From a virus (taxonomy: Duplodnaviria; Caudoviricetes): a stretch of DNA of 32,057 nt. Numbering within the stretch: the stretch's first letter is position 1; each line of letters starts with the position of its first letter. Position numbers and translations under genes: made by a program. Below the pieces are notes generated by a model that was given only the letters and a program-made list of their open reading frames with translations, was not told the DNA's origin and did no database searches. Shown piece after piece: positions 10,526-30,937 of this stretch. The stretch is from positions 1 through 32,057 of the IMG/VR virus record IMGVR_UViG_3300048902_000295; one strand, given 5' to 3'.

Positions 10526-10526
10526 G

Positions 10527-12158
10527 CTATTGCACCACCGCCGTCACGTTCGTCGGCGGCGAGAGCACCGGTGAGATCGAGCCACCAAACTGGAACGCCC
10601 CCGGACTCCACTTCGCGGGAGCCGCCGGACGCGCCACGCCGGCAAAGTCAGTGCAGAGATCGGTGAGGTTTCCGGTGCAAAGCGCCGAAAGGTTCGTGCC
10701 CTTCTCGAACAGCGTGGAGCCCACGCCCGGAATCCCGGTCGAGGTATTGACGGCGAAGTTCGACGGCGAGTCGACGATCGAGTTCGCTTCCTGTCCGCTG
10801 CCGGCGGCGAAGAAAGCTTTCCACTGCGTGAAGTTCGCGAACGAACAGTTGCTAACGCACGCGATGAAGTACGTGGCGTTCGACGGCGTGAAGCCGTAGA
10901 AGTTGTAGTCCAGTCCTCCGCCGACGAACGTCGGCGTGGTGCTGCCGATCGAGTTCACGCCGGGGCCGCCGCTGCCGGGGCTGCTGAGGACCGTGACGTT
11001 GTTCCTAAAGTCAGAGTTCGTCCCCTGCAGCTTGTTGAGCGGGTGGTCCTCGCCGCTGACGGTGACCAGCGTGTTGTTGTACGCCTTCGCCGCGCCGCCG
11101 TCTCCGACCGTCAGGCAGAGCATGCCATTGTTCCACGTCCGCGAAGCCGGCGAGAGGAACACGTTGTTGAACGCCGTCATGCTCGTGCCGACCGTCGCGC
11201 CCTCGTTGAAGATCCCCGCCGTGTTGTAGACGCCTTGGTCGCCGTAGAACTTGTTGTTACTGATGAAGACGTTTTTATAGATTCCGCCGACGTTCCCAAC
11301 TTGATAAAGGTGCACGCCGTCGTGGTGGTAGCAGGAGCTGCCGCCGCAGAGCGTGGCGGTCGTATCCCAGTTCGCCCAGTCGTGAAACAGGTCGTGGTTG
11401 ATCAGGACCGTGTCCGTCGTCTGGTTCGTCACGCCCACCGCCACGTTGTGATCCGCGTTGTAAATCTCGGTGTACGTCACCGAAACGTTCGACGAGCTCA
11501 GCCCCGTGTAGATCGCCCAAAGCACGTCGTGAATCTGGCTGTTCGTCACGGTCAGCGTCGAGACGCTCGTCGCGTGGATCGCCGATGGGTCGGGCGGAGA
11601 CGGCGCGTGGTCCGTGGCCACGGTGTGAACGTAGGCGTTCTGCAGCAACATGTTCTTGATGGTGATGCGGCTCGCGCCGTCGAAGTTCGCAAGCTCCGAC
11701 GCGCCCACCTGGTTGGCGAGCGTCGAGCCGTTGGCCGTCGACTCGATGGTGCCGTTAGGCACGAACGTGCCGAGGAACGGGTTGCCGGTGCCGCCGCCGT
11801 CGTAAACGAAGTCCGTCTTGCCGTTGCCGTTGAGGCAGCCCGTCGCGGGGCAGACCGGCTGGCTGAGCTTCGCGCCGGACTCCCAGATCACCGTGACCGG
11901 GTTTCCGATCGCGCCAGAGCCAGCGTTGACGACCGTCGTGCCGATCGTTCCGCAGAGATGGACGTGCGTGCCCGGCCCGATCTGCACGCCGGTCGGAGTG
12001 CCAGCGGTCCAGTTCGAGCCAGAATTGTAGTAGCTTACCGGCTTCGCGTTCGCGCAGTCCGCGCCGGTTTGCGCTCCGGCCCCGGCGTTCGAGATGTACG
12101 CATCGTTGGCGAAGACGGGTGCCGCTATCGCTAGAAAAAGAAACAGTAGCTTTCGCAT
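10527..12158 (-). CDS. Secreted right-handed beta-helix (pectin-lyase-like) protein, putative depolymerase
   Basis: Signal peptide MRKLLFLFLAIAAPVFA; IGPGTHVHLCGT, HHDGVHLY, Asn-ladder repeats (FNNVF, YNNTLV, FRNNV, LDYNFY), GAFQF tail. Confidence 0.8.
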   Translation of the reverse strand: MRKLLFLFLAIAAPVFANDAYISNAGAGAQTGADCANAKPVSYYNSGSNWTAGTPTGVQIGPGTHVHLCGTIGTTVVNAGSGAIGNPVTVIWESGAKLSQPVCPATGCLNGNGKTDFVYDGGGTGNPFLGTFVPNGTIESTANGSTLANQVGASELANFDGASRITIKNMLLQNAYVHTVATDHAPSPPDPSAIHATSVSTLTVTNSQIHDVLWAIYTGLSSSNVSVTYTEIYNADHNVAVGVTNQTTDTVLINHDLFHDWANWDTTATLCGGSSCYHHDGVHLYQVGNVGGIYKNVFISNNKFYGDQGVYNTAGIFNEGATVGTSMTAFNNVFLSPASRTWNNGMLCLTVGDGGAAKAYNNTLVTVSGEDHPLNKLQGTNSDFRNNVTVLSSPGSGGPGVNSIGSTTPTFVGGGLDYNFYGFTPSNATYFIACVSNCSFANFTQWKAFFAAGSGQEANSIVDSPSNFAVNTSTGIPGVGSTLFEKGTNLSALCTGNLTDLCTDFAGVARPAAPAKWSPGAFQFGGSISPVLSPPTNVTAVVQ

Positions 12159-12167
12159 GGGCTCTCC

Positions 12168-12770
12168 TTAAATGGTCCTGCTGTCGCATGAGTTGCTGGC
12201 GTCGCAAACTTGGAACACGACCGGGCTGCCTGGCTTCAGCTTCCCGGCCCACGACGCAACGTAGGCTCCGCTCGAGTTGACGTTCGATCCCGACGCGAGC
12301 ACGGTGGAGCCGTTGCGGAACGAGTAGGTGGTGCGCACGTTCGGCGTCGCCGTGTAGCTGGCGGACAGCGTGGTGTTCGAGCCGGTCGAGTTTCGCGACA
12401 CGGTGGTGATCGAAAGCCCGGTCGGCGGCAGCGGCGCGTCCTTCGGCACGATCGCGCCGACGTGGTTCGAGCCGACCGACTCGGTCTGGCTGCACGTCGG
12501 GCAGACCGCCGTCACGTAGTACGAGTAGAGGCCTCCGGCCTGCACCGTGGTGTCCGTGAAGCTCAGCGTGGTCGTGTTGCCGATGTTTTGGAACGTGCCC
12601 TCCGCGCTGCAGGTGTTCGCGGTGACCGAACCGGTGCACGGCGCACGGTACAAGTTATATCGGGTCACGCCCGTCGTCGGGCTCGCGCCGTAGCTAACCG
12701 ACACGCTGTGCTGCGCGGCGGCGAGCGGCGAGAGAATCAAAAGCGCTAAGGCTAAAAGTACGTTTTTCAT
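12168..12770 (-). CDS. Secreted FN3/Ig-like protein
   Basis: Signal peptide MKNVLLALALLILSPLAAA; YNLYR, FTDTTV, YSYYVTAV, ES..SN FN3 motifs; paired Cys. Confidence 0.8.
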   Translation of the reverse strand: MKNVLLALALLILSPLAAAQHSVSVSYGASPTTGVTRYNLYRAPCTGSVTANTCSAEGTFQNIGNTTTLSFTDTTVQAGGLYSYYVTAVCPTCSQTESVGSNHVGAIVPKDAPLPPTGLSITTVSRNSTGSNTTLSASYTATPNVRTTYSFRNGSTVLASGSNVNSSGAYVASWAGKLKPGSPVVFQVCDASNSCDSRTI

Positions 12771-13195
12771 GTTGCGTCCTCTTTCAAGAGATTTGCGATG
12801 GTCTTCTCCAACTTGGCCGGGGCCGCGATTAGGACCGCCTCCGTGATGTTGTGGTACCGCCGAGCGGCGTCCTTCTCGTTCTTGCTTACCTTGGTGCCGA
12901 TGCCGGAGAGCTGCGACACGATCTTCTCTTCCTTCTCTTTCAGCTTTCCGTCAAGGGTCGTAAACTTCTCCTCCACCTTCTTCTCCTGCGTCTCGAAGTT
13001 CTTGTCAATCTTGTGATCCAGCGCCACCCGGCGCTCGTTGCCGCGCTCCTCGGCCGCCTTCTCGACCCGGCTCAGCTCCACCCGCAAGCGGCCTAGCTCC
13101 GTCGGAACGTAGTAGTAGAAGCCACCGGCGGCGAACACGATGGCCCCCACGCTGAACGCGATCGCGATCACCTCCAAGATTAGCTTTGAGTCCAC
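12767..13195 (-). CDS. Holin-like single-TM protein with coiled coil
   Basis: GGAGG-GTG start; N-terminal hydrophobic helix; position upstream of the endolysin. Function inferred. Confidence 0.5.
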   Translation of the reverse strand: MDSKLILEVIAIAFSVGAIVFAAGGFYYYVPTELGRLRVELSRVEKAAEERGNERRVALDHKIDKNFETQEKKVEEKFTTLDGKLKEKEEKIVSQLSGIGTKVSKNEKDAARRYHNITEAVLIAAPAKLEKTIANLLKEDAT

Positions 13196-13205
13196 TTCGC
13201 CTCCG

Positions 13206-13499
13206 TTAAAGCTTATAAGAATCTGGCAACTTTCGAATGATCTCGTACAGCTTCTTCGTCAGCTCCTGCATCCGCGCTTCGACCACCGCCGAAGATGATT
13301 GTCGAACTTCGTCGATGCGTGCCTTGACAATCTCGAGCTCGACGAACGGCTCGAGCTTCGCCCGATAGTCCGCTAAGTCCGGAGCGACCGGCCCCGACCC
13401 AGTTTCCGATCGCTTCTCCGTGAACTGATGATTCAACGACGCTACGACTGCCGCCAACCGACCTGCGGCGGTTGGCTCCAACTCGATGCGCCCGTTCAT
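13206..13499 (-). CDS. Hypothetical helical protein
   Basis: GGAGG 6 nt before the ATG; protein-like composition, unlike the overlapping alternative frame. Confidence 0.7.
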   Translation of the reverse strand: MNGRIELEPTAAGRLAAVVASLNHQFTEKRSETGSGPVAPDLADYRAKLEPFVELEIVKARIDEVRQSSSAVVEARMQELTKKLYEIIRKLPDSYKL

Positions 13500-13533
13500 C
13501 CATATCCTCCCCCAGGACTAGGTTACCAAATTT

Positions 13534-16083
13534 TTAGATGCCGAGGCTCTCGAGCCTCGCGTGTATTTTATACTGCGGCGAGTTCGTTGTCGTCGTGCTG
13601 TAGGTGATCGCCGTGCCGGTCGCGGCGTAGAAGCTATAGGTCCACGTGATCGCCGTGCCGCTAGACGCGCACGACAAAGAGCCAGGGCCGCCAGCACCCG
13701 TGCTATTGGGCGTCTGCGCTTGTACCTCGTCGGTGAAGCCAAGGTTGACCTGCACCGTGCTCGAGCCAACGGACGCCGTGCAAACCACGTAGATGGTGGC
13801 GCGAAACATTTGGTTCGCGCTGCCCGGAAATGTCGCGCCCTGCAGCGTGGTCGAGCCAAGATTTCCGGTCGTCGTGCCTTGGTTGTCGAAGCCGACGCCG
13901 TACGCGCCACCGCGTACCTCGGCCCCGTACGTGATGTACTTCGCCGCGCTCGCCGCGCCGACGTTGGTCGCGTACGCTTGCCCGACGACCTGCCCCGCGA
14001 ACGGCCACGTGGCTCCGACCGGGTGCAGCTTGCCCCCCGTGGTGATCGACGGAATGAGGTAGTCACCGACGGTCTCAGTGGCATCCGTGTCGCCTCGCGC
14101 TCGACCCATCTGAGAGAAGACGATCGTCCAGCAGCCACGGTCGGCGACTCCGATCGCGCCAGGGTAAAGCACGCCAGAGGCGTCGGCAGCGGCGGTGGTG
14201 CTGTTGATCTTCTGCAGCCTCGCGTAGGTGCCGACGCTCGAGAACCCGAGCGCGCTGCTCCCCATGCCGCAGAACCCAGAGTTGAAGTCGTTGCTGATGT
14301 ACTCGAAGTTCGGGCCGATCAGACCTTCGCTAGCGTTAGTGCTGTCAAAGGCTTGGAAAATATACTGACCACCGATGCCACCAGCCGCCGACGTGAACTT
14401 GTGCGCGAAGCCGCTAGCAGACGATCCCGCCTTGATGAGCCACGTCGCGCCAGAATTGAAGAAGTCCGGGGTCGCGTCACGTGTCGCGGTAGCGAGAAAC
14501 TGATTTCCGAATGATCCGTAGTTCCACCAAAGCGCCGTGCCTGTCAGAGAGTTAACGCGGGTGTTACCACTCAGGGCCGCGCCATTCCACATCGCGAGTT
14601 GATTCGTCTGACCGCTGCCTGAGGAAATGCCGAAGCCGGTGGTCTGCGCTTGAATCCTGATGTTATACGTTCCGGCCCCGCCATTGGTAGTGAGAACGCT
14701 CCCGATTGCGCCGTAGTGCGTGGCGATACTCGCACCCAAGGTGGAACTTCCCGCGTCGTGACAATCACCGGTGGTGACAGACTGCACCACTAAATCATTG
14801 GCAGTGGTCGCACCATCAAACACGCAAGGGATTGAGTCGCCCTGCACGGTGATCGTCGCATCGCCCGTCGTGCCACAGTTCGCGGTGCAGATGCCGATGA
14901 TGGAGGCGAGATTACTAGAAACGCCTGGAAGGATCGCGGTGCCGTCGCCGTTGTACGCAGCGAACTTATTCAGCACCGTGCCGGTGACAGATTCGTTTTT
15001 GATCTTTACGAAGCCGCCGCCGCCCGTGCAGGTGACGACGAGGGTGCCTGAAGTAGTACAGTCTCCCGAGAGGTCGCCATTGGTGATGGAAGTGGGACCG
15101 GAGAACTTGCTGAGGTTGCCGCTCGCCGGTGACCCTGTCGTCGTAACCGTTCCCGAGCCTGATCCGCACGGCGTCCCCGTGTCCAGCAGCAGCACGACGC
15201 TCGCCGCGACACTCGCCTGGACGCAGTTTCCGTTGGTCGGAGTCGCGGACCAGATGCCGCGCAGCTTGTCCGCACCGTTGGTCCAATCGTGCCAGTTCTT
15301 GTTTGTAGTGTCGTAGCCCGAGTCACCATTGGTGGAGGTCGTGAGTCCGGCGGAGAACCTGGACTTGAACAGCGTGACGCCGGACAGGTCATAAGTGAAC
15401 GCGCCCCATGTCGATCCCTGATCGGTGCGAACGACGACGGACGGGAGCCTCGCCGCGCCGAGAGTGCCGCTGCCGATGTTAGTAGCGTTGGTCGTGTCCG
15501 TGGTCGCCGACGCCGCGAATGCCACGCCGCCTGTCTTGGTGCAGTTGATCGCGAGTGTGCCTGATGTGGTGCAGTCACCGCTGAGATCTCCGTTGGTGAT
15601 CGAACTTGAGCCGGAAAACTTTGTCATGTTCCCGTTCGCCGGAGATCCAGTGGTGGTGACCGTGCCGAGCGAGCTGCTCGCCGGGGTCGCGATGCCCAAC
15701 GTGCGATCGTCGGTGATCGTCGTGATGACGCCACTGGCGGTGACCACAGTGGCGATCGCGATGGTGGCCGACGTGTACCCGGAGGTGTTCGAGGCCGGCG
15801 CGCAGCTCGAGGCGGTGTCGAGGTAGACGTAGTTCGTCGTATTGTTCGCGAGGGTAAGCGTGCCGCCAGCGTAGTTCACCATCGCGTTCAGGCAGCGCAC
15901 GCGGCCAGCGCTGAGATTCAGCACCAGCCCGGCTCCGGCCTGTGGCCAGTACCCTGGACCAACACCTTGGACGTATTTGGAATTGGCCGAGTAGATCGGC
16001 GCGGTCTGCGTCTGCGGTTGCTGCGCGGACACCAACGAAGGCAGCAGCGCCAGTAGAACTACCAACAATTTTCTTATCCCCAT
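13534..16083 (-). CDS. Fibre/adhesin protein with N-terminal signal peptide
   Basis: GGGAG-ATG at 16083 gives MGIRKLLVVLLALLPSLVSAQ; Gly/Thr/Ser-rich with repeats; occupies the tail-fibre position after the tail tip gene. Confidence 0.75.
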   Translation of the reverse strand: MGIRKLLVVLLALLPSLVSAQQPQTQTAPIYSANSKYVQGVGPGYWPQAGAGLVLNLSAGRVRCLNAMVNYAGGTLTLANNTTNYVYLDTASSCAPASNTSGYTSATIAIATVVTASGVITTITDDRTLGIATPASSSLGTVTTTGSPANGNMTKFSGSSSITNGDLSGDCTTSGTLAINCTKTGGVAFAASATTDTTNATNIGSGTLGAARLPSVVVRTDQGSTWGAFTYDLSGVTLFKSRFSAGLTTSTNGDSGYDTTNKNWHDWTNGADKLRGIWSATPTNGNCVQASVAASVVLLLDTGTPCGSGSGTVTTTGSPASGNLSKFSGPTSITNGDLSGDCTTSGTLVVTCTGGGGFVKIKNESVTGTVLNKFAAYNGDGTAILPGVSSNLASIIGICTANCGTTGDATITVQGDSIPCVFDGATTANDLVVQSVTTGDCHDAGSSTLGASIATHYGAIGSVLTTNGGAGTYNIRIQAQTTGFGISSGSGQTNQLAMWNGAALSGNTRVNSLTGTALWWNYGSFGNQFLATATRDATPDFFNSGATWLIKAGSSASGFAHKFTSAAGGIGGQYIFQAFDSTNASEGLIGPNFEYISNDFNSGFCGMGSSALGFSSVGTYARLQKINSTTAAADASGVLYPGAIGVADRGCWTIVFSQMGRARGDTDATETVGDYLIPSITTGGKLHPVGATWPFAGQVVGQAYATNVGAASAAKYITYGAEVRGGAYGVGFDNQGTTTGNLGSTTLQGATFPGSANQMFRATIYVVCTASVGSSTVQVNLGFTDEVQAQTPNSTGAGGPGSLSCASSGTAITWTYSFYAATGTAITYSTTTTNSPQYKIHARLESLGI
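15025..15666 (-). repeat. Duplicated 43-codon module in the fibre (15025-15153 and 15538-15666)
   Basis: GTVTTTGSPAxGNxxKFSGxxSITNGDLSGDCTTSGTLxxxCT occurs twice, with many synonymous differences. Confidence 0.85.
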
Positions 16084-19000
16084 ACTCCCGCCTCTCCTGT
16101 GATTCCACCATCGCTCGCGGTCAAGAACAAGTTCGTGCCGTCGAAGGATGGTAGCTGTAACCAAATCTTTCCGCCGGTCGCTCCAGACATCCGCACGATC
16201 ACCAGCTTCGGCATCGCCAGCAGCCCGTGCGGCACGGTAAAGTTTCCAGGCGCTCCCGGAGCCAGCGCAACCGAGATGAAGCGAGTCAACGTCGGCGTGC
16301 GCGGCGCGGTGACCCAAGCGTAGTCCTTCCCAGTGATGCCGGCGTCGGACGCGATCAAGTTCAAGTCGGTTGACGTGTACGGCGGCGTACCCTTCCAGAT
16401 GTCGCCCGACGAATCCATCTGCACGAGGCCGAGCGTGGGCGTCGAGGCGAGCCCGTGCGGCACGACGTAAGCGCCGCCTGCGGACGGCGACAGCGGGACG
16501 GAAGCGTCAGCCGGGCCGTAAAAGAACGACACGTTCGCGGTCAACCCCGTGTCCGACGCCGTGAGGTACACGTTGGTGCCATCGACCGAGAGCGGACGCT
16601 GCAGCCAGATGTCGCCGCTCGAGGTCATCTGCACGATCGCGAAGAGCGGCGTGGCGAGCAGCCCGTGGGCCACGGTGAAGTTGCCCGGAGCCGGCGAGGT
16701 GACGGGGATGGTCACGATTTCCGGCGAGGGAATGATCGCGCAGTTGCCAGGCGCGTAGCTGTACGGCGTGCAGTCCGCGAGGTCTTGAACCGCCGCGCCG
16801 AAGATGTTGAACGCTTGAAACTTGAAGAACAAAGTCTGCCCGACCCACGTGGGCTGCAGCGCCAGCTTGGCGATGCCCGATCCGTCGCCGAACTGGTTTT
16901 GAACCGCGACGCTCGCCGCCCCGAGGAATGCGAACCGCTTCCCGGCGGCGTGCGAGACCGACCCAGACAGCGGCTGATGGTAGACGGCGCGGCGCAGCCC
17001 GTTCGGGCTCGCCGGCAGCGTGTAGTGATAGGCGCTCGTCAGTGTCGCTGTCGAGTACGTTCCGAGCTCGTAGCCGCACGTCGTCGAGCCCTCGACGTAG
17101 AACGGAAACACGAAATTGTTCTCGTCGGTGAGCGGGTACGAGGCGAGCGACCCAAGGCTCTCGCTGAGGTCCAGCACCAAATCGTTAACGAAGTCCGGGT
17201 CGAGCCCAGCAGGCCACGGGGAGGCGAGGATGCCGGTGACGGCCTTCCCGAAGATGGTGAAGATCGGGTTGGTTCCGTAGGACGCGCCGCCGTCAGTCGA
17301 CACGAACACGTTGCAGCCACCGTAGTTGGGGTTTGACGAGCTGACCGGAATCCAGAGCTGCTGAGCTTCGTTCACGGTCATCGCCGTCGGCGGCTCGAGG
17401 AAGATGGGGGTGTTCACGCTGCCTGGATCAGCGTTGATGTCGACCACGTTCGGCGTGACGATCGTCGCCGTCAAGTTGTTCGGGTAGTGCAGCCCGTAGA
17501 TAAAATTTTCGGCCTCGCACTCGAGGCCGCCGGACTTCGTCTCCTTCACGCTGGTGAGGCGCAGCGGAGTTTGATTCAGCCCGATGCGCGGCTCCGTCAC
17601 CGTGATTAGGTCCATCGCCTCGAGAAAGAGAAACTTCGGCTGGACCTTAAACTTGTACGTGTTGCGTAGGTAGACCTTCCGGCGAATCTGGATGGCGAGA
17701 ATTTTTCGCGCCACCGTCGGGTCCACGATCATGTTCAAGACGGTCGGCGGCAGCTTTCGCGGACCGTACAAGTAGATCGCGCCGGACTCCGGCTCGGACA
17801 CCGTCGCCTGGTTGTACTTGTTGTTGCGATCGAAGTGCTGAACTTGAAGAATGTTGTTCGCGTCAACCTGCGCCTTCCGGCCCACCACCACCGGGGGGTT
17901 CGAGCCATCTGCGATCAAGTCGTCATCCGTCAAGTCGGCCACCGGCCCGTTGGCCGTCGGCGAGAGGAAGCACGCGGCGAAGCCGCCCGTCGGCGCGGTG
18001 GAGTCGTCCGCCGCCGACCCGTCGCCGATCACCGACACCTCGCTGTACGCGATCGACTTTTGCCGGAAGCCGCCCCAGACCGGCGCGGCGTTCATGCACA
18101 TGTAGAGATCCTTCAGCCAATCGGAGGCCTTTCGCTGCGCGTCCATGCAAAGAGCTCCCTGCAGGTGGCCCGACCGGCACTGCAGGCGCACATTCATCAG
18201 CGTGTCGAAGTCCACGATGTCGCTCAGCGTCTTCGGGTACGGCACCACACCGCTGACCTGCTTCGACTTCACCGCGAACAGCACCAGCGTGTTCAAGTTC
18301 GCGTGGCCGTCATACGAGAAAGTATACGTGCCGGGCTTGTACGTCTTCCGCCCGTAGAGTGCGACGCCGTTGTGAATGAACGGAACGGGCAGCAGGTCCT
18401 TCCACTGCGGCGACGCCTTAATGTTCGTGTACGAGCTGTCCGTCAGCAGCACGGCGACGAGGTAGCCCGGATCACCCGTGGTCGTGATCGAGGCAGTGAG
18501 CGTGCCGCCCCCCGTGTTGTTCACCACCACCGGAGCGCCGTCAACCTGCTGTGAGCCTTGGTCGAACTCGAGGATGATGCCCTGCGCGCCGAACGGAAAG
18601 CCGCCGCCGCCCGAGGTCATGTCCACCAAATTGCCAGCGCCGCCGATCGCGCCGTCTACGTACCACACTGCTTGCTGCGACGCGCCGGTCGAGACGAACG
18701 CCGGCAGCCAGGTGTTGACCTGCGTGTCCACGATCGTCGGCGGCGTGCCAGCGCCAGGCCGGGACCAAAACCCAACGCCTAAAAGAACGCTGCCCGGATT
18801 GTTTGGCTGCGGGTAGAGCAGCGACGGGTTCGAGGGCTCGAGCGCCTGCGACCAATTTTTCTGCACGACGCCCGGCATGTCGAGGCAGTTCAACCCACGC
18901 TGAATCAAGCCGAGTCCGTCACCGGTCTGCAGCATGCCGCTCTTGAAGATGTCCTCGAGGATGTCCGCGTACTCCGCGTCACCACGGGGGTTGCCGGCAG

Positions 19001-19931
19001 GGTCGAACGTGGACGGGAGAAAGCTTCCGGTGCCGCAAACCTCCATGCGCCACGATGGAATCGAGGCGGTGGTGCCGAGATCCATGTCGGACGAGCCCAC
19101 GCCGGCATACGCTTTGTACAGCCGCTGCTGGCCGGGAAGCCCCGCGTCGGCGTACTCGGTGCCGTTGCCGAGCACGTTCTCGAAGACGAAGCGATTGTAC
19201 GTGAGCGGCGACTGCCGCTTGATCACCGCGCTGAGCTGCGCGTAATAAACGTAGATGAAGAAGTCCGCGCCGAACACGCCGTCATTCGGTCGCGTCGGGT
19301 TGTTCATCGGAAAGGTGTTAATTCTTCCGACGCTCGTGTTGTACGGAATCTGAAACGTGGGGCCGTCGCCTGGCTTCCAGAAGTAGTACGGAAAGCGAGA
19401 CAGGTTCGGGTCATTCAGGTCCGGGCCGTGCTGGTAACCATTCCACATCGGGAACTCGTACTTCGTGAGCGGCAAAGAAACATTGCGATACGACACCGGG
19501 CCGGGAGCACCGTAGTCATCAAACGTGATGTCGTAGTTGATGGAGCACTCGAGCGTCATCGCTATGATCGCGTAGAAGTAAGGGTCGGCGATGGTGATGG
19601 GGTTGTTCCACGACCCGCCTAGATTTCCATCAATCTTGAGGCGAACGAAGTTCAGCGGGTAGTAGTTGCTTTGATTCGACCAGATCTGAAGAACGTTTTG
19701 AATCGGGTTGGCTCCAAGGAGCATGTCGATGTTCTCGACGTAAGCCGGCGGCCCCTTCTTGCTCTTAAACTTTTTCGTGCTGTGGCCCGGTCGCAGGTTC
19801 GCGGCCCAGATCGCCAGCGGCGCTCCGCGTGCGCAGCCGTAGTAGTTCGGAATCGTCGCTCCGTAGGTCGCGGCCTGCAGCAGCGTGCCGAGCGCCGTTG
19901 GCCGATGAACGCTTTGCTTACCGAAGCCCAT
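16074..19931 (-). CDS. Tail tip / central fibre protein (host-specificity J/GTA-like)
   Basis: ATYGATIPNYYG start, RNTYKFKV..FLEAMDLITV, YGGCNVFVSTDGGASY, LRRAVY...HAAGKRFAFL, VGQTLFFKFQAFNIFG; follows NlpC/P60. Confidence 0.85.
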   Translation of the reverse strand: MGFGKQSVHRPTALGTLLQAATYGATIPNYYGCARGAPLAIWAANLRPGHSTKKFKSKKGPPAYVENIDMLLGANPIQNVLQIWSNQSNYYPLNFVRLKIDGNLGGSWNNPITIADPYFYAIIAMTLECSINYDITFDDYGAPGPVSYRNVSLPLTKYEFPMWNGYQHGPDLNDPNLSRFPYYFWKPGDGPTFQIPYNTSVGRINTFPMNNPTRPNDGVFGADFFIYVYYAQLSAVIKRQSPLTYNRFVFENVLGNGTEYADAGLPGQQRLYKAYAGVGSSDMDLGTTASIPSWRMEVCGTGSFLPSTFDPAGNPRGDAEYADILEDIFKSGMLQTGDGLGLIQRGLNCLDMPGVVQKNWSQALEPSNPSLLYPQPNNPGSVLLGVGFWSRPGAGTPPTIVDTQVNTWLPAFVSTGASQQAVWYVDGAIGGAGNLVDMTSGGGGFPFGAQGIILEFDQGSQQVDGAPVVVNNTGGGTLTASITTTGDPGYLVAVLLTDSSYTNIKASPQWKDLLPVPFIHNGVALYGRKTYKPGTYTFSYDGHANLNTLVLFAVKSKQVSGVVPYPKTLSDIVDFDTLMNVRLQCRSGHLQGALCMDAQRKASDWLKDLYMCMNAAPVWGGFRQKSIAYSEVSVIGDGSAADDSTAPTGGFAACFLSPTANGPVADLTDDDLIADGSNPPVVVGRKAQVDANNILQVQHFDRNNKYNQATVSEPESGAIYLYGPRKLPPTVLNMIVDPTVARKILAIQIRRKVYLRNTYKFKVQPKFLFLEAMDLITVTEPRIGLNQTPLRLTSVKETKSGGLECEAENFIYGLHYPNNLTATIVTPNVVDINADPGSVNTPIFLEPPTAMTVNEAQQLWIPVSSSNPNYGGCNVFVSTDGGASYGTNPIFTIFGKAVTGILASPWPAGLDPDFVNDLVLDLSESLGSLASYPLTDENNFVFPFYVEGSTTCGYELGTYSTATLTSAYHYTLPASPNGLRRAVYHQPLSGSVSHAAGKRFAFLGAASVAVQNQFGDGSGIAKLALQPTWVGQTLFFKFQAFNIFGAAVQDLADCTPYSYAPGNCAIIPSPEIVTIPVTSPAPGNFTVAHGLLATPLFAIVQMTSSGDIWLQRPLSVDGTNVYLTASDTGLTANVSFFYGPADASVPLSPSAGGAYVVPHGLASTPTLGLVQMDSSGDIWKGTPPYTSTDLNLIASDAGITGKDYAWVTAPRTPTLTRFISVALAPGAPGNFTVPHGLLAMPKLVIVRMSGATGGKIWLQLPSFDGTNLFLTASDGGITGEAGVWG

Positions 19932-20421
19932 TTCTCATTTTCTCCCACGGGTCGAAGATCTTTACCGTCTTGTGCGCCCACAGCCAGTGCGTCGAAGCGT
20001 CAACCTCTTTCACGTGCTCCGGCGCGGCGTGAAGAACCAGCGGCCACCTCACGACGATCGCCGCGTGGTCGAACGCGTGCCCAGCGTTCTTCTTCTCCGG
20101 ATCTGGCTCCACCGTGCGCACGAGGGCCACGTTTCCGGGCTCAGCCTTTAACGTCGGGTAGCTGACGCTCTCGAGAACTTTTACCGCGTGCCGCAGCATG
20201 CGAAAGACGTAGATCTCTTCCTTGACGTGGCACGACCAGTCGCCGCCGAAGATTCCGATCTGCTCCTCTTGAATTAATCCGCAGTGCCGGTACACGGCGT
20301 AAATGAAGCGCGCGCAGTCCACGCCAGCGCTCTTGCAGCATTGGTTCATCTCGTACGGTGTTCGCTCCCACGTTCGAGCTTCGGCGATCACGGCCTCGCG
20401 CCACTCGTGTTCGGGCATCAT
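19918..20421 (-). CDS. NlpC/P60 family tail assembly peptidase
   Basis: EARTWERTPY, GVDCARF, HAAIV...LHA. Confidence 0.9.
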   Translation of the reverse strand: MMPEHEWREAVIAEARTWERTPYEMNQCCKSAGVDCARFIYAVYRHCGLIQEEQIGIFGGDWSCHVKEEIYVFRMLRHAVKVLESVSYPTLKAEPGNVALVRTVEPDPEKKNAGHAFDHAAIVVRWPLVLHAAPEHVKEVDASTHWLWAHKTVKIFDPWEKMRNGLR

Positions 20422-21350
20422 AGCGCGGTCTCCGGGTCGGGCACGAAGTCAAAGCCTTGGTAGAGCGGGTCGGTGTTGTTCACCGGCGCTTGGGTCGACA
20501 CGTAGAACTCGTCGCCGGGAGTTGGGTCCCAAGGAAAGGGGCTGTACACTTGAAACTGGTTGCGGTGAATGCCACCCCCAGCGTTGAAGTCAAGGTTCGT
20601 TCCGATCGCGGACCACAGCCCGGCGAGCGTCGAGCCCGGCAGAAATACCATGAAGCCTCGAGCAAACTTATCTTTGCCATAGATCTTTCCAGCCGTTGGC
20701 TGAATGCACGTTCCCAAGATCACGACGCGGTCGGACGGCGCGTTCACCACGAAGGTTGGCACCGACGTCTCGCCGTCCGTAAGAACTGGCGACGCGCCGG
20801 TGTAGCCGGCCTGCGTGTTCTGCGACTCGATGACGTTCGGCGGAATCGGCTCGTTGATCACGTTTAAAAAGCTATTAACGTTAAACACGATCGAGTTTCG
20901 CTGCACCGTGGTTTCCGCAATCCAGCCGCCGAACCACTCGCACGCGCCGTAGGTGTTCGCGTCGCCTGGCGTCGGCATCACGGTGCGCCAGCACCGAACT
21001 CGCTTGTTGTCGTAGTACCCGAGCTGCGCAAGCTGATACGGGCTCGCCGTCGCGATGTCCGTCGTGAACAGAACGGCGGGTGGCGACCACTTCAACGTCA
21101 TGTTCGTAACTTCCAGCCCGACCTTCGAGACCACGTTCCGCTCGCGCTCGATCGCGGCTGGATAAAACGTGCCCCAGAATGGCCATGACAGTGGCGAAGG
21201 GTACTCGGTTAGAAACAAAGCCTTCGGGTCTTCCGCTTCGCCAATCAAGATCAGGTCGGCGCGGCCAAGCTGCAGCGCCGCTCGACTCTTTAAGAAGGCG
21301 ACGACCGTGCTAGTGACGTCAACACCCGCTCCGCTGATGAACGTTCTCAC
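20418..21350 (-). CDS. DUF2163-like tail hub protein
   Basis: GTG at 21350 (GTGA overlap); VGLEVTNMTL, GYYDNKRV, PTPGDEFYV, GFDFVPDPETAL terminus. Confidence 0.8.
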   Translation of the reverse strand: MRTFISGAGVDVTSTVVAFLKSRAALQLGRADLILIGEAEDPKALFLTEYPSPLSWPFWGTFYPAAIERERNVVSKVGLEVTNMTLKWSPPAVLFTTDIATASPYQLAQLGYYDNKRVRCWRTVMPTPGDANTYGACEWFGGWIAETTVQRNSIVFNVNSFLNVINEPIPPNVIESQNTQAGYTGASPVLTDGETSVPTFVVNAPSDRVVILGTCIQPTAGKIYGKDKFARGFMVFLPGSTLAGLWSAIGTNLDFNAGGGIHRNQFQVYSPFPWDPTPGDEFYVSTQAPVNNTDPLYQGFDFVPDPETAL

Positions 21351-22840
21351 GGTGTCACCTGATTCGAAGCCGCGATCGTCGACTCGGTGCCGGTAGCCCA
21401 AGCCGGCGGCCCACCCACCGTGGTCACGCCGTACACGTAGCTGGTGCCGGTGACCGCCGTGGTGTCGGTGTAAGAGGTGGTCGCGACCGGCGTGCCGCCG
21501 TTCAGCGGTGTCCCAGAAAAAGTTCCTCCGGCCACCGCCCGATAAACGTTGTAGCCCACGACGTTCGCCGCCATCGAAGCCGTCCAACTCACCAGCACCT
21601 GGTGTGTCGTCGCCGTGACGCCGGTTCCGGAGAGCGCGATGCTCACCGAGTTGTCCGCCGCGCTGTTGATAGCCAGCGTCGCCGTCTTCACCCCGATCGT
21701 GGTCGGCGTGAAGCTTACGATCACCCCGCAGCTTCCCAAGGTGAAACCGTTCGCGCACGACCCACCCGTCACGGTGAAGCTCGCGTCGCCGGTCAGCGTG
21801 TAGTAAGGCGTTCCCAGGGCGAACGAACCGAACGTAGCGGACAGCGTGGTGCTGTTCGTCGCGGTCTTCGTCGTGGCGACCGACCCGAACGAAAGCGAGG
21901 TGGCGCTGGTCGCGATCGTCTTCGCCGTCGAGCCGGTGCAAGATAGGTTACTAACCTGCGGCCCATTCGTCGCATCGCTGAGCACGGTGAGTGTCGCCGA
22001 CTTCGCCCCCGCCGAACCAGGCACGCAGCTGACGACGAAGCCACAGGTCAGGTTGGGACCGAGCACCAAGCCATCGCCGCAAGACGTGGCAGGCGGGTCC
22101 ACCGTCCCGACGGTGAACGAGCCTGGGTCTGAGCCGCCGAGGGTGAACCACGGAGTACCCAGTGTGACGGTGCCGGACGTGTCGCGGATGACCGAGCCGG
22201 CGAGCGAGTTCAGGTTGGGGGTGCTAACAGAGATGGTGCCGGGGTTGAACGTAACCGGGCGAACCTGCGTCACCGAGCCGCCGCGAAACGGCCCGTTGTA
22301 CACGTAGAGGTGGTGCGCGTTCGCCGTGACGATCGCGCCGGGAATCGTTCCCGTTAAAGTTCCGGTGTCAACGAATGTGGTCGTGATGGCCTGAAAGTCG
22401 AAGAGAATCGTCGAGGCCGGAGAGAAGTCTTGCCCGTGCACCGTGACCGTAGCGTTCTGCCCCGTCACGAAGTACGTCGGCGTGTAGCTGGTGATCACCG
22501 CCAGCGGGTTCAGCACGGGGAGGAAGACCGTGTTGGAGATGTGCGAAAAGCAAACCGTGTGAATCGACGCCGACCCGATCGCCTGAATCAAGTTTCCGGG
22601 CACCGTCGCGTAGATGATGCTCGACGTTTCGAAGATCGTCGTCAGCGTGACACCGTTAAACGAAACGTTATTTGTGTGGCAGCCCCCGGCTCCGAAGACT
22701 CCATTTAAAATCAAGGTGAAGCTGCCCGAGCCGGCGACCACGCTCGCCGGGGCGATCTTCGAGATGGTCGAGTCCAGCTGAGCGCGCGTCGAAGCGGAGA
22801 GCGCTACGAGCGCGATCAGGGCCAACAGAAATCGCTTCAT
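21347..22840 (-). CDS. Secreted multi-Ig protein (2 IPT/TIG-like, 2 ASH/choice-of-anchor-D-like, 1 FN3)
   Basis: ATG 22840 overlaps the upstream TGA; MKRFLLALIALVALSASTRA signal; LSFGSV, FTPTTIGVKTATL, IALSGTG, YNVYR motifs. Confidence 0.8.
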   Translation of the reverse strand: MKRFLLALIALVALSASTRAQLDSTISKIAPASVVAGSGSFTLILNGVFGAGGCHTNNVSFNGVTLTTIFETSSIIYATVPGNLIQAIGSASIHTVCFSHISNTVFLPVLNPLAVITSYTPTYFVTGQNATVTVHGQDFSPASTILFDFQAITTTFVDTGTLTGTIPGAIVTANAHHLYVYNGPFRGGSVTQVRPVTFNPGTISVSTPNLNSLAGSVIRDTSGTVTLGTPWFTLGGSDPGSFTVGTVDPPATSCGDGLVLGPNLTCGFVVSCVPGSAGAKSATLTVLSDATNGPQVSNLSCTGSTAKTIATSATSLSFGSVATTKTATNSTTLSATFGSFALGTPYYTLTGDASFTVTGGSCANGFTLGSCGVIVSFTPTTIGVKTATLAINSAADNSVSIALSGTGVTATTHQVLVSWTASMAANVVGYNVYRAVAGGTFSGTPLNGGTPVATTSYTDTTAVTGTSYVYGVTTVGGPPAWATGTESTIAASNQVTP

Positions 22841-23568
22841 AGGGTAGTCGTCCTCGCGGTGATCAAGCTGATGTTTGACGAGCTCTGCGCTTCCGCTCCG
22901 CCAATGCACCACAGGTTGTAAGTAAACTTTTCAAAGTCTTGCCCGTCCATGTCAAAGCGAACGCGGAAGTAATAATTGGCTTGCGCCGTAACCGGCCCAG
23001 TAGGAGCACCCGCTACCCAGCTCAGATACATTCCGGCGAACGAATAACCGGGAATCGCTAGCCCCGGTCCGGCCAACGTGTAGTCCGTGCCGCCGCCTAC
23101 CTGCGCGACGCCGTTCGCGAACACGCTGATGCCGCCATTCAGGTCAGTGATGTCTTCGTAAAACTCACCACCCATACTGCGCTGCACCGGCGAGTAGTAG
23201 TTTCCCGCGCCATCGTTTACCACCTGAAGCTGCGCTTGTAAGTTAGGGGACAGATCCGGCAGCAGAGCCGGACCGATGAAGTCATCATCCGGGTCGTCGA
23301 ACAGAAACGAATCGAACTTCCCCTGACGAGCGAGAAAGAAGCCCAGCAGGCGTTGAAAGTCCGGGTACGACTCGCCGCCGGCAATCCACCGCGAGTTGTT
23401 TCCTAGCACGTCGTAGGCGAGCGTCCACTTCCAGATCGGATTGTTCGTTTGGTACAGCCGGTTCTCGACGGAGCCAGCCGAGCTCTCGACGAGCGTACTG
23501 AAGGCCGCGTTCTTCACCACGGTGAAGGTGAGGCCGCGAAGGTTACCGGGATAGATGGCGTTGCTCAT
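22837..23568 (-). CDS. DUF2460-like distal tail protein
   Basis: FFLARQGKFDSFLFDDPDD, YYFRVRFDMD; follows the tape measure gene. Confidence 0.85.
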   Translation of the reverse strand: MSNAIYPGNLRGLTFTVVKNAAFSTLVESSAGSVENRLYQTNNPIWKWTLAYDVLGNNSRWIAGGESYPDFQRLLGFFLARQGKFDSFLFDDPDDDFIGPALLPDLSPNLQAQLQVVNDGAGNYYSPVQRSMGGEFYEDITDLNGGISVFANGVAQVGGGTDYTLAGPGLAIPGYSFAGMYLSWVAGAPTGPVTAQANYYFRVRFDMDGQDFEKFTYNLWCIGGAEAQSSSNISLITARTTTL

Positions 23569-26500
23569 GCGATTGTCGGAATCAGCCCTCTCCGAACTCC
23601 GACGCTGATGGCGTCCGCGAGCTCTTCGTGAGACATCCTTCCGTTCTCATCTCCATGCTGGTGAACGTGAATCTCCGGCTTGACGTTAACCGTCTTGTAG
23701 TTGTTCGTCGTTGCCCCACCCGTGTTGTTCGTCGTGGGCCCCGCCGGGTTGCTAAGCTCCGGCGGAACGTTCACCGACGGTGGCTGCAGGCCGCCAGCCG
23801 AGATCAAGTTTTGAAGACCTAAGCTGATCGGCGGCGGCAGAATGGTTTCGTTCTTGTGGGCGGCAATCAGCATATCTTCTTTCAGCACCGCGCCCTTTTC
23901 CGCCGCGCCCACCGCGAGAAAGCCCAACGTCTGCGCGACGGCGGCGGCGGCCACTTCCGGAGCAGTTGAAACGTTGATCGGAAACGGCAGCGCTTCCATC
24001 ACGGAGGCGAACGCCGCCGCTCCCGCCGCGCCGGCATCAGAACCGATCTTCAACTCGTTGCTCGAGATCACCGCCGCGACCGCCGCCGTCTGTCCTGCGG
24101 CTTCCGCCGTCGTCCTCGCCGCCGCGCCTGCCGTCGCCGCCGCCGTCCGAGCGGCCTCTCCCGTGGTGATCGCCGCCGTCTTCGCCGTCTCTTGCGCGAC
24201 GGTCGCTCCCGTTTCCGCCGTGTCAACCGCTTTCTGCGCCGTCGCTTCCGCCGTCGTCTGCGCCACGCGCTTGATTCCGAGCGCCGAGAGGAAAGCGTCG
24301 AAGAAAGTTTCCGTCGCCTTCTTCGCGCTAGTCGACTGCGTGTGGATGACGTTGATCTTTAAGGCCGTCAGCGCTTCCTGCAGCACGATCTGCGCGAGGG
24401 ACTGGACGTAGTTGCCGACGATCTGAATGCCCATTCGGCCCCAGCCCTCAACCATCTGGTTCCAGAAGGTTTGCATCACGGTGGAAAACTTCGTATGCTG
24501 CGTCAGCATCTGGTCGAATGCCGACGAGAACGAGCCGCTGACGACGTTCATCGTTTGCTGGAAGTTCGCGGCCACTCGCTCGTCGATGCGCTCGCGATCA
24601 TTCGCAAACTTCTGGTCGAGCAGCGACATCTCGTTAAGAGCTTTCCGATACTCCAACGAAGTTTCACCGAAAGTTTTTCTCGCGAACTCGGCCGCCGACT
24701 CCATCGTCACCCGCTGCGCGTCGTACCACCGGTTCAGCGCGATCGTCTCGGCCCCGGCCCACTGGGATAAAGTAATTTCATGAGCGCGAAGGCGAACCTC
24801 ATCCGAGCGCCGCGTTTGCTCTAAAACCAAGCTGGAAGTCTCTCGAGCGAATCGAAGCTCTTCTTCTTGTTCGCGCCGCGCCAGCTCTCGCTTTCGCGTC
24901 TCACCATCTTCGGTGATCGCGACTTCTTTATCAATCTGCTCTTTCTTTAAGTTCACCAACTGCTGGTTCAGTGTGATGATCTGCGCTTGGTTTTTGTTCG
25001 GATCTTGGTTTGCAATCCTCAGCTCTTCTTCCAGCAGCGCACGCTCGGCCGCGATTCGTTTCGCTAGCCCATCTTTCAAGATGACCGTTTCTTGGTCAAT
25101 CGTGATTTGCCGCAGCGACAGCTTTCGCCGCGCCGCCGCCTCGTCGTCGGTTACCTCGAGGTCCGTCGCGCTCTTCGAAGCTTGAGCGAGAGCACGGGAG
25201 ACGGCGTTCGCGTGGGACAACCTCTTCTCGTCCGCCGCCGCATCGATGTTCGCGATCGTCGTAGCGTGGGCCAGCTCCGCCACCTCGAGATTCGCGTTAA
25301 GCGTCGCCACCTCCGGCCCGATGTCTTTACCGGGGTGGATGACGGCTTCCTTCTGAGCCTCGGAGATTCGCTGCGCCGTGTACGTTTTGAAGTTTTCTAG
25401 CTTCTGGTCGGCGGCCAGCTTTTCGTTCACGACCTCTTCGTCAAGATTAAGTTGGTTCAAACTGAACAGCCGCTTCGTGCCGGCCGAGAAGTATTCCACA
25501 TACGAGTCGGCGATCTTCTTTCGAGTTTCCGTCGCCGAGACTTCGTCTTTCAGCTCACGGTCAAGCTCTTCGATTCGAGTGGTGACGGCTAGCTTCGGAA
25601 CGGTGATTTGGTTTATCTCTCGCTGCCGCGCCGCGTTCTTCGCCTGCGCCGCTTCCAGCTCGGTGTAACGGTTCTGCTGTTCCTTGATCTCCTCGTTCGC
25701 TCGCGTGATCCAGTTGATGATGTTCTGGCCGATCTGAGCTTCCGCCGCTCGCGACCCGAGACGATCATGCTCCTCCTGAGTTTGAGTCGCGTGAAGCTCC
25801 TCTAGCCGCCGCTTCGTCTCTTCGATCTGACCCTGACGAACTTTGTAGTCGTTCGCCAGCCCCAACTGCTCTTGACGAAGGTTCGCGGTCTCGATCGACT
25901 CGCGGCGAGAGCCCTCGGTTCCGATCACCGTGAGCTCGCGGCGTCCCTTCGCTAGCTCTAAGTTTTGGGCGATGACCTCGTCATTTAATTTTATTTGGTT
26001 TTGATAAGTCTTCTTCGCTTGCTCATCCCACTCGACGAGCTTGTCGACAATCTTTCCGATCGCTTCCGGCATCTCCAACAGCGTTTCAATAAAGATGCCG
26101 ACGATCGCGACGGAGAACGCCGCCGCCATCGCTTCCTGCACCAGCGGAATCCGGCCCAGCAGGTGGCCGAGCGCCCCCGGAATCCTCACGCCGACCGACT
26201 CGCCTAGCAGGTTCGCCTTCTCGGTCGTCTCCGCCGCTTCGAACCGAAGCGCTCGAAGTTCGGTCCGCGCCGCCGTCATCTCTTGAGTGGCTCGCCGCAG
26301 CTGAGTTTGAAGTTGGTCGAGCCGGGTTTGATCGTTCGTCTGCAAGATCTCGGCTCGCAGGCGAGCCACCTCGGCCGTCGTCTCGATTACTTTTCCGCGC
26401 AGCGCGTCGAAGGCGAGGATGCCGGACGTCTTAGTTTGAACGAAACCATTCAGCGTTTCAGTCGTTACACTCTGCACCGACTTCGACACGGCTACGTCCG

Positions 26501-28145: not shown

Positions 28146-28198
28146 TTCTCTTCCTCCTCAAATTGCTGCCTGCCGACCAGGAAGGCCACCAAAAATTT

Positions 28199-28681: not shown

Positions 28682-29295
28682 CACGCCACCTCCCTGGCGA
28701 GCGTCGCGCGCAGCCGCTCGAGAATCGTTTCGCGCATCTCAGCCAGCGAAGTGCTCATGAATGGTCGCGGCGGCAGCGGCGGGTGAACGACGTGACGCAC
28801 TACGATCCCACCGAGCTGGCCGAACTCCCCGATCTTCGACGGGCGATGCGATCCGCGTCGCTTCCCCAGCTTAAACGTAAGCGACCGGCCCTGCGTCGAC
28901 AACGCGCCAGCGCCGAGCGAGCCGCCCGGAAAGAAGGCCAAGGCACGCTTATCAGATTTCCCGGTAACGATTCCGGGGAAGATGTCGTAAGTCCGTGTGC
29001 CGCCCTTCTCCTGCACGGCTGGGTAGATCGAAGCGAGGCCGCCGCCTGCCGTCACGCGGCCTACCAACCGGTTGCCAATCTCCTTCGTCGCTTCCCGGTG
29101 GACCGAACCCAGCAGCCCTCCGCCACCACGACGTGTCTGCAGGACCTCGCCGGAAAGCTTCTGCTGGATGCGACGTTCGAGCTCGAGCATCAGCCGGTCC
29201 ATCTCGACCATCATCGCTTCGCGAATCTTCACGCGGCGAGTCGTAAGAGCTTTCTGAACTCTCTCGTCCGTTGACTTAAAAGATATGTTGATCAT
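28681..29295 (-). CDS. Neck protein, HK97 gp10-like
   Basis: ATG 29295 (ATGA overlap); KLSGEVLQTR, YPAVQEKGG, HPPLPPRPFM. Confidence 0.75.
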   Translation of the reverse strand: MINISFKSTDERVQKALTTRRVKIREAMMVEMDRLMLELERRIQQKLSGEVLQTRRGGGGLLGSVHREATKEIGNRLVGRVTAGGGLASIYPAVQEKGGTRTYDIFPGIVTGKSDKRALAFFPGGSLGAGALSTQGRSLTFKLGKRRGSHRPSKIGEFGQLGGIVVRHVVHPPLPPRPFMSTSLAEMRETILERLRATLAREVA

Positions 29296-30200
29296 GAGAT
29301 TGACGCCAGTCGCTTGTAGTATTCGAAGACGCAAGCGTACTCCGGCGGCCACTCCCAACTTTGATATGATGTTGTCGAAGATGAGGTGCCGGCGTTCACG
29401 CCTCTGGTCTTTTGATCTTGCCATGCCTTCCGCTTGTAGTTAATCGCGACCACGCAGCGAACGGCGTACTCGAGGTCCGACGGCGCGGCATTCACGTCGT
29501 AGGTAACCGCAACCTGCTGCCCCTCGTCGGCGACGTTGAAAACATAAAGCCCTTCAGACACCGCGTACTGTCCCGGCCCCGGCGTGTTGTCAACCTGCTC
29601 CAGCGGAAGCAACGTCGGATAGTACAACACGCCACCGTCCGCTACCCACGGCGCACGCTGAAGTGAAATTGTCTGCGCCAAGATGGTGTCGATCTCATTC
29701 GTGACCGTCTGCGGATCGTAGCCCACGTCAAGGCTAAGCAGAATGTTTCCAACTCCACGGGGGAATGCTGGGCCCTTCGTCGTGCCGCCGTAGGTGCTGT
29801 AGTTCGGGTAAGGAAACGTAGTGAAGTTTCCCTGACCGCCGCGCAGCGCGATCGAGTGCCCACCAGCATCAACGTAAGCTCCCCAAACCGTCGGCCCGGT
29901 CGAGACCGGAATCGGCGCACCGTTCGCGCTGACGGACCGCAGCGCCTTGATTGGCCAGCTCCTGGTCGGCATCCGCTGGTTTCCGTTTCCGTCATACACT
30001 TCGTCGATGACCGTCACCACCGAGTTCAAGCTCGCTTGCCCCGTGTAGTTCAACAGGTGCTTCGAGAAGCCAGTAATCGCCGCTTGAATCTCGTCGTCAT
30101 CAGCGATCGGGTCGATGCGATACGGGTCGTTGTTCAACCCGGCCTGCGCACGACGCTTCACGGCGTTCAGCCAAGTCAAATCGATGCTGTTCGGCGACAT
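29292..30200 (-). CDS. Head-tail adaptor/connector protein
   Basis: ATG 30200 (TGATG overlap); EVYDGNG, FPRGVGNI, PSDLEYA, YKR terminus. Confidence 0.75.
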   Translation of the reverse strand: MSPNSIDLTWLNAVKRRAQAGLNNDPYRIDPIADDDEIQAAITGFSKHLLNYTGQASLNSVVTVIDEVYDGNGNQRMPTRSWPIKALRSVSANGAPIPVSTGPTVWGAYVDAGGHSIALRGGQGNFTTFPYPNYSTYGGTTKGPAFPRGVGNILLSLDVGYDPQTVTNEIDTILAQTISLQRAPWVADGGVLYYPTLLPLEQVDNTPGPGQYAVSEGLYVFNVADEGQQVAVTYDVNAAPSDLEYAVRCVVAINYKRKAWQDQKTRGVNAGTSSSTTSYQSWEWPPEYACVFEYYKRLASIS

Positions 30201-30937
30201 CAAGGAACCACCACCAGTCCGCTGGCCGTTGGCAAACTTTCGCCGCAGGCCTTGCTGAAAGCTGTCACGCGATACCCATAAGAAGTCGAGCGCGTGATGC
30301 GCGAGTCTTTCCAATAGTTAGACCGAACGCCAACCGTCGCTCGCAACAAGAAGTTGATCGAGTCACTGCTGCGGTAAACGTTAAATGATTGAACCGAACA
30401 CGCAGCCAGCGGCGTCCCGGCCACCCACTGCACCGTGATGAACTTCGTTCCCTTTAACGTCACGGACACGAACGCTGGCGGCGTCGGCGTCGGGCCAATC
30501 GGCGGCACCGGCGGCGTCGGGATGCTAACGTTAGCGATGTTGGACAGCACGCTTTCGTGCCCTGCCCCGTCGAACGACGTGACCGCGTACCCATACGTCA
30601 ACCCGTCGACTACCGTGGTGTCGTCGTAACTCGTCGTCACCGCGTCAACGGTAGCGAGAATTGAAAAGCCAGATCCGGTCGAGCGATAAATGTTTTGCCC
30701 GGTGATTCCTGGGCTCGTCGAGACGGTCCAATTCACCAAGACATCGTGAGCCCACGCTGTGTTCGGAAAAAGAAACAGCATCAACAAAAGTAAAATAGTA
30801 CGAGGCGACCGCGCCGAGCGCTTCAGCCCTGCCGCCTCATCTCGCAGAGCAACGAGTCTGGTCGCTGCGAGCTGTTCACCCGCACCGCAACTACCTAATG
30901 GTGAGTTGCAAAACGTTGCTCCCCAAGCTCTTGTCAT
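30200..30937 (-). CDS. Secreted tandem FN3 protein (start codon uncertain)
   Basis: KRSARSPRTILLLLMLFLFPNTAWA signal-like segment; two FN3 domains (NIYRS...TYGYAVTSFD..ES..SN; FNVYRS...YGYRVTA..GES). Confidence 0.75.
   Translation of the reverse strand: MTRAWGATFCNSPLGSCGAGEQLAATRLVALRDEAAGLKRSARSPRTILLLLMLFLFPNTAWAHDVLVNWTVSTSPGITGQNIYRSTGSGFSILATVDAVTTSYDDTTVVDGLTYGYAVTSFDGAGHESVLSNIANVSIPTPPVPPIGPTPTPPAFVSVTLKGTKFITVQWVAGTPLAACSVQSFNVYRSSDSINFLLRATVGVRSNYWKDSRITRSTSYGYRVTAFSKACGESLPTASGLVVVP

Follow-up and report, generated by a model that had tools for sequence, protein, structure and literature searches.

A signal-bearing tail fibre and a candidate docking pair in the late operon of a probable Acidobacteriota phage

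The virus record IMGVR_UViG_3300048902_000295 (Duplodnaviria; Caudoviricetes) is a whole 32-kb record of a soil phage, and its 32,057 nucleotides constitute the window analyzed here. Its minus strand holds a single co-oriented run of head-tail, tail and lysis genes, within which an initial annotation had singled out five open reading frames, here called A to E, as encoding exported proteins; all five are present. Protein C, encoded directly behind the tail tip gene, appears to be a tail fibre with a predicted virion-anchor shoulder fold behind an export signal. We lean towards the reading that C is exported by Sec, folds with disulfides in the periplasm and docks at lysis, by its N-terminal peptide, onto a triple repeat that ends the tail tip protein. 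This repeat, missed by the initial annotation, is the likely docking site. The outcome is a candidate docking pair on one probably exported fibre, accompanied by four accessory exported proteins. To our knowledge, tailed phages complete their particles in the cytoplasm and are not known to add fibres in this way.

Protein C and the repeats of the tail tip

The following features carry this reading.

16074..19931, minus strand: tail tip protein (Phage-tail_3), with no signal peptide
16077..16718, minus strand: three HGL repeats of ~65 aa in tandem, forming the C-terminus of the tail tip; gp53/H-lectin-like fold predicted; putative socket
13534..16083, minus strand: C, putative exported tail fibre / receptor-binding protein (RBP), 849 aa, 16 Cys
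16024..16083, minus strand: signal peptide of C (20 aa), cleaved ahead of Gln21
15949..16023, minus strand: proposed plug, the conserved N-terminal peptide of mature C, residues 21-45
15694..15960, minus strand: predicted RBP shoulder domain of C, residues 42-130, with conserved Cys64/Cys94

Signal peptides were called with our own tripartite Sec heuristic (positive n-region, hydrophobic h-region, small residues at -3/-1), not with SignalP; its false positives amounted to 2 of 453 distinct core virion N-termini, and to 8 of 453 under a relaxed rule. Among the 36 minus-strand genes it flags four at their starts, exactly B, C, D and E. Protein A is recognized only if a long n-region is allowed, with cleavage after residue 63, or if translation begins at a CTG (codon 38), which has GAGG upstream and yields a normal 26-residue signal. 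A tripartite Sec/SPI signal is consequently recognized on all five, in agreement with the initial annotation. The spanin-like gene also passes the relaxed rule, and the endolysin and the tail tip are negative.

The signals are retained among relatives, a check that the initial annotation had called for. For family C, 376 homologues were found and our figures come from the best 120: a QQP motif opens the mature part in 94 of the 120 listed, a hydrophobic stretch precedes it in 91 of these 94, and position -1 is occupied by Ala or Gly in 81, so that the presence of the signal is conserved while its own sequence varies. The relaxed rule is passed by 68 of 74 E homologues, and B homologues encoded between the distal tail protein Dit and the hub keep their signal in loci L001, L012, L014 and L015. 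A frame or G+C artefact is ruled out by this retention, and lipoprotein signals were rejected because the sole lipobox-like match, in A, comes without a hydrophobic core.

These leaders might nevertheless go unused for export in the virion form, if an internal start or an uncleaved leader gave cytoplasmic or membrane-tethered fibres that are assembled normally. In-frame TTG and GTG codons do lie just ahead of the cleavage site of C, such a codon occurs at this site in 21 of the 94 loci, and the leader of gene A is atypical. However, a Shine-Dalgarno-like motif accompanies such a codon in none of the 94 loci, only 2 of 94 have a Met among residues 1 to 25 of the mature part, and the small residue at -1 is kept in 81; internal starts were rejected as the general route. 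True starts downstream of the hydrophobic segments, which according to the initial annotation would undo its proposal, are not borne out for family C, and we regard the unused-leader explanation as very improbable.

Neither C nor D nor E had a match in Pfam and PDB sequence searches. Residues 1-135 of C were modelled (27 sequences; predicted local distance difference test score, pLDDT, 77), and among PDB structures the model came closest to 8kec, the long tail fibre of A-1(L), in its shoulder (Z 11.8, root-mean-square deviation 2.5, 88 aligned), followed by the p2 RBP (2wzp; Z 8.4) and by Mtd (1yu0) and the 1358 RBP (Z 7.0); the predicted model thus has the N-terminal shoulder fold of tailed-phage RBPs. 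In the available text of PMC10966104, the shoulder of the 379-residue A-1(L) fibre (gp34), Met1-Ile155, anchors the fibre to the baseplate. Protein C shares with these shoulders the predicted fold of residues 42-130 and the position after the tail tip. It differs from A-1(L), whose shoulder starts at Met1 in that text, by the signal peptide and plug in front, and from shoulder-type RBPs generally, which are synthesized in the cytoplasm without a signal peptide, by the hydrophobic leader of its family. The gene lies at the end of the tail or baseplate module in the window and in most of 20 sampled loci, where family C follows several tail-module types, and some members are in host loci. The C-terminal parts of the family are variable and include beta-helix, pectate-lyase and LamG domains.

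The plug, the first ~25 residues of mature C, is highly conserved, with an invariant Asn, and is poorly modelled alone. Tailspike-type starts that follow immediately on signal and plug, the shoulder being absent, were found in 11 loci, and in L229 signal and plug precede another fibre domain; the plug is therefore a separable unit, a short conserved N-terminal peptide carried by variable RBPs (shoulder fibres, tailspikes and another fibre).

Its putative partner is a ~65-residue repeat for which HGL is our own label. The three HGL repeats that form the C-terminus of the non-exported tail tip gave a model with pLDDT 96.8, which resembles gp53/H-lectin-like fibre tips at middling scores (Z 7.5 and 7.0); no T4gp10-like fold appears among the 50 listed fold matches of HGL, an unlisted family remaining possible. 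Mean column identity of HGL is 48% across different tail types. In the best 150 of 769 representatives, one repeat was found in 97, two in 14, three in 37 and four in 2, so that 37 of the 53 multi-repeat proteins have exactly three; HGL is C-terminal in 133 of these 150, and 4 pass the signal rule. The carriers form 21 scaffold clusters, including tail tips, a Pam3-gp18-like baseplate plug protein and a DUF4054 protein, and 16 clusters have a plug in the locus, in a set partly selected by C.

In loci L402, L404, L406, L415 and L417, HGL genes are coupled to large proteins that start with a different conserved peptide, possibly a second plug type; four of these proteins carry a signal by our heuristic.

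The mature parts of A, B, C, D and E contain 2, 8, 16, 6 and 11 cysteines, even numbers in four of the five, and the non-exported tail tip contains 13. Even counts are in excess in the exported families (66 of 94 plug proteins and 47 of 68 E homologues, compared with 8 of 22 tail tips and 7 of those 19 signal-less post-tip proteins that have cysteines), in line with the paired cysteines described by the initial annotation.

Co-occurrence of plug and repeats, and the likely host

When loci were fetched by C, HGL was present in 54 of 64 genome loci and in 40 of 44 distinct viral loci. A sample fetched by core tail genes (120 loci, reduced to 53 distinct ones by dropping duplicates and loci without a complete tip) gave 2 loci with both HGL and plug, 51 with neither and 0 with only one; the close clade within it (18 loci) gave 2 with both and 16 with neither. 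Fetching by HGL itself, with the metagenome part taken from the best 80 of 338 matches, gave 119 distinct loci, of which 19 with less than 600 nt downstream were dropped, and the plug was found in 61 of the remaining 100. With a looser plug motif, 45 of 81 loci with C-terminal HGL gave a hit at most 600 nt away, one of them spurious; background windows gave 13 of 3000. Among 301 genomes sampled across the class, three unpublished ones being left out, 41 had HGL, 25 had plug-shoulder genes and 23 had both; these genomes are related, and the 23 do not represent 23 independent events. Genomes with a plug gene and no adjacent HGL had HGL elsewhere in 4 of the 5 cases tested.

All 64 strong genome matches to the C N-terminus bear Acidobacteriota titles, and three weak ones are planctomycetes without the leader motif. 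Because of these 64 matches the host is likely to belong to the Acidobacteriota, to which family C is confined; the initial annotation had noted, as an impression, that the domain style recalls secreted proteins of this phylum.

Several observations weigh against docking of plug on HGL, or against export of C. The plug is absent from 39 of the 100 HGL loci. Of the chromosomal HGL genes, 20 had no shoulder gene next to them; 10 of these are not followed by any large gene, 5 are followed by a large gene with a different start, and 5 by a plug-like start (3 by regular expression, 2 by eye). Conversely, the C N-terminus lacks a nearby HGL in 10 of the 64 genome loci, two of them beside polysaccharide-export genes. 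The loci are related and the counts are not tree-corrected, so that co-occurrence may reflect joint inheritance, and the unbiased core-tail-gene table holds only two positives. Most close relatives place signal-less proteins after the tip. Among 50,697 GenBank phages there was no match for plug-shoulder, HGL, hub or A, and no cultured member was found. Given its predicted resemblance to lectin-like fibre tips, HGL may itself bind sugar. Finally, the hub, a cytoplasmic protein, has an even number of cysteines in 21 of 30 cases, and in the available text of PMC10811340 the virion of phage Milano contains many disulfides; cysteine pairing alone was rejected as proof of export.

Alternatively, C would be an exported virion fibre anchored by its shoulder to Dit, the hub or the body of the tip, or the plug would be a trimerisation element, and HGL would be only a linked module. 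Known shoulders do bind baseplate proteins directly, 5 HGL-coupled tailspikes lack the plug, and the 10 chromosomal HGL genes mentioned above have no fibre behind them. Nevertheless, the 11 HGL-coupled tailspikes that carry the plug have no shoulder, and the plug-HGL pair is also seen on unrelated scaffolds, for which no shared partner of the shoulder is apparent; we consider this explanation quite improbable.

A broader alternative is that all five proteins, C included, are exported yet never enter the virion, acting instead as late envelope or lysate factors (receptor-masking decoys, soluble depolymerases clearing exopolysaccharide at release, or surface remodellers), with HGL as the phage's own lectin-like tip. 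The lectin-like resemblance of HGL fits this, as do the plug-shoulder genes in host loci, some beside wza/wzc/wzy, the absence of a plug from A, B, D and E, and the B homologues, which are mostly host 'choice-of-anchor D' proteins of Terriglobia. On the other hand, the shoulder fold is one that anchors fibres to baseplates, unrelated fibres and tailspikes share the plug at the start of the mature protein, HGL is conserved across tail types, unlike variable receptor tips, and three repeats are preferred. We judge this alternative unlikely, and continue to favour docking of C on the tail-tip repeats.

Signal-plug-shoulder genes in host loci were seen in L140, L142, L090, L177, L400:9839-12247 and L401:7858-10521, two of them beside wza/wzc/wzy-type genes; such fibres are possibly supplied in trans. 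A ~30-kb chromosomal cluster in L396/L397 (G070:C7:655000-694999) and L398/L399 (G036:C2:240000-279999) has a Mu-like terminase, portal and protease. Genes with signal peptides stand between its portal and protease genes, the position of the tape measure is taken by a gene of 295 aa, and behind HGL comes a fibre with signal and plug. Housekeeping genes flank the cluster, no integrase or replication gene was seen in the stretches read, and it occurs mostly in one copy per genome; it is a candidate gene-transfer-agent-like element.

A possible assembly route and its precedents

In the route that we favour, C would be made late and exported by Sec, signal cleavage would free Gln21 and the plug, and C would trimerise with disulfides in the periplasm. 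The tail would be assembled in the cytoplasm, where the three HGL repeats of each tip subunit could form a pseudo-threefold socket. The endolysin has no signal, and therefore lysis requires an inner-membrane lesion; in the general model of lysis such a lesion mixes the compartments ahead of outer-membrane rupture. The plug could then dock on HGL, and its masking by the signal peptide would also prevent premature docking. P22 tailspikes attach last and can join particles in vitro, a point on which our literature search returned no paper. The initial annotation had proposed that the exported proteins fold oxidatively and join the virion at lysis. For C the conserved signal and predicted shoulder fold speak in favour of this; for A, B, D and E, in which no anchor motif was found, it is doubtful.

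More tentatively, and with somewhat less than even confidence, plug and HGL could be a portable plug-and-socket common to sipho-, myo- and podo-type Acidobacteriota phages and to a chromosomal, phage-derived host particle. A cytoplasmic HGL trimer on any virion part would capture Sec-exported, disulfide-bonded fibres through a peptide unmasked by signal peptidase. Completion of the virions would then wait until lysis, and fibres with a plug could be supplied in trans, even from host capsule loci.

The nearest likeness is with branched RBP systems (Klebsiella KP32/KP34, K1-5, G7C), where, as far as the available text of PMC6872550 and PMC13352976 goes, a short conserved N-terminal peptide on a variable tailspike is paired with a dedicated domain on another virion protein; C and HGL would differ by a socket that is predicted to have another fold and by the proposed export step. 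The MAT fibres of Bdellovibrio likewise resemble phage fibres and carry a conserved N-terminal domain behind a signal peptide, but in the accessible part of PMC10769870 they are cell-encoded, displayed on the predator surface and outside any virion operon. The Q-rule secreted proteins of Porphyromonas gingivalis prophages come from signal-bearing phage genes and expose an N-terminal Gln, as do B, C and D; in the part of PMC10367356 available they are proposed to alter the host envelope, and no fibre fold or docking partner is given. Our literature search, which reached neither supplements nor most subscription papers, found no paper on signal-bearing exported tailed-phage fibres. On this subject the available text of PMC8951688 concerns an endolysin only and that of PMC5723332 gives counts only, and the terms 'signal peptide', 'structural protein' and 'mass spectrometry' do not occur in the main text of the Tunturi paper (PMC11924767).

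If this route is followed, a Sec-routed RBP would split virion assembly over two compartments, phages could use disulfide-rich host adhesin and glycan-lyase domains, and a depolymerase or lectin would be kept from premature assembly. The idea reduces to whether a 25-residue peptide binds a 210-residue triple repeat; if it does, the two would offer host-range work on soil phages a compact and portable coupling pair. The finding also marks genes that annotation would discard as non-structural owing to their signal peptides.

In a distant phage group (L003:16993-18201, L007:17048-18067), a signal peptide stands on a post-tip tail-collar (PF07484) fibre, with no plug and no HGL. The tail operon of L003 also contains a cold-shock-protein-like gene, recognized by eye, at L003:12700-12903.

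The other four exported proteins and the late operon

The remaining features of the run are listed below.

30200..30937, minus strand: A, predicted exported, two FN3 domains; signal cleaved behind residue 63, or shorter signal from a CTG at codon 38; flanked by glycosyltransferase and head-tail adaptor
22837..23568, minus strand: distal tail protein Dit (DUF2460)
21347..22840, minus strand: B, signal peptide, IPT/TIG, ASH (Cep192_D4) and FN3; between Dit and hub
20418..21350, minus strand: baseplate hub (PF09931); GTG start overlaps the stop of B
12767..13195, minus strand: one-transmembrane-segment lysis-type membrane protein (holin or spanin-like candidate)
12168..12770, minus strand: D, signal peptide, FN3 and a second beta domain, 6 Cys
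10527..12158, minus strand: E, signal peptide and probable right-handed beta-helix, 11 Cys
9974..10525, minus strand: M15 peptidase endolysin, without signal peptide
9336..9971, minus strand: Rz-like spanin candidate

In minus-strand order the run comprises a UDP-glucose dehydrogenase fragment, glycosyltransferase, A, head-tail adaptor, neck, terminator-like, tail tube, chaperones, tape-measure-like, Dit, B, hub, NlpC/P60, tail tip, C, a 97-aa gene, the one-transmembrane-segment gene, D, E, endolysin and the Rz-like gene; the labels tube, terminator and tape-measure are based on position and size. Gene A overlaps its neighbours by 4 and 1 nt, B by 4 and 4 nt, C overlaps the tail tip gene by 10 nt and D has a 4-nt overlap. 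Genes D and E are 9 nt apart, and 1 nt separates E from the endolysin gene. These junctions, with B splitting the Dit-hub pair and C in the tail-fibre slot, are as the initial annotation described them. A promoter and terminator scan of 8500-24000 gave chance-level results; ahead of B to E, the strand that carries them showed no promoter-like site apart from a weak one within the end of C. The genes thus lack the promoter and terminator of their own expected of morons, for which the start/stop overlaps leave no space.

In their distribution, in contrast, A, B, D and E do resemble morons, and the initial annotation's view of the five as one fixed system unlike morons was not upheld. Of the 29 distinct loci in the hub-defined clade, only 7 contain a signal-bearing gene of at least 300 aa. 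Gene A is absent between glycosyltransferase and adaptor in L219, L222 and L225, and a different signal-FN3 gene stands ahead of the adaptor in L205. A single five-gene system is ruled out by this sporadic presence. The named homologues of B are mostly Acidobacteriota 'choice-of-anchor D' or ASH proteins (Terriglobia), secreted ASH/FN3 proteins that share the domain make-up of B and the FN3 of A and D and differ in being host genes, whereas those of the window are translationally coupled within a tail operon. Some E homologues contain Beta_helix PF13229, an E homologue lies between Dit and hub in L208, and no plug motif was found in A, B, D or E. These four look like host-derived exported accessory proteins, inserted into and translated with the late operon, that likely act in the envelope or lysate; their association with the virion is doubtful.

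A head-tail adaptor with an N-terminal IPT/TIG domain related to that of B (L215:257-1126) offers a hint of a virion link, and the same locus has a tail-tube gene in tandem duplicate (L215:2162-3774). Insertions between Dit and hub (L205-L238) occur mostly where Dit is short (~240 aa), and relatives with an enlarged Dit (300-575 aa) are mostly without them. A glycine-rich insertion in the tail tube of L012:948-1934 resembles, by eye, one in the exported B homologue L015:6517-8610. In the window, the glycosyltransferase-like gene and UDP-glucose dehydrogenase fragment that precede A occupy 30934-32057. A near-consensus sigma-70 promoter (11/12) stands by a 10-bp stem at 9237-9300 on the minus strand, directly after the lysis genes, and the genes downstream include a C5 DNA methylase (999-2816).

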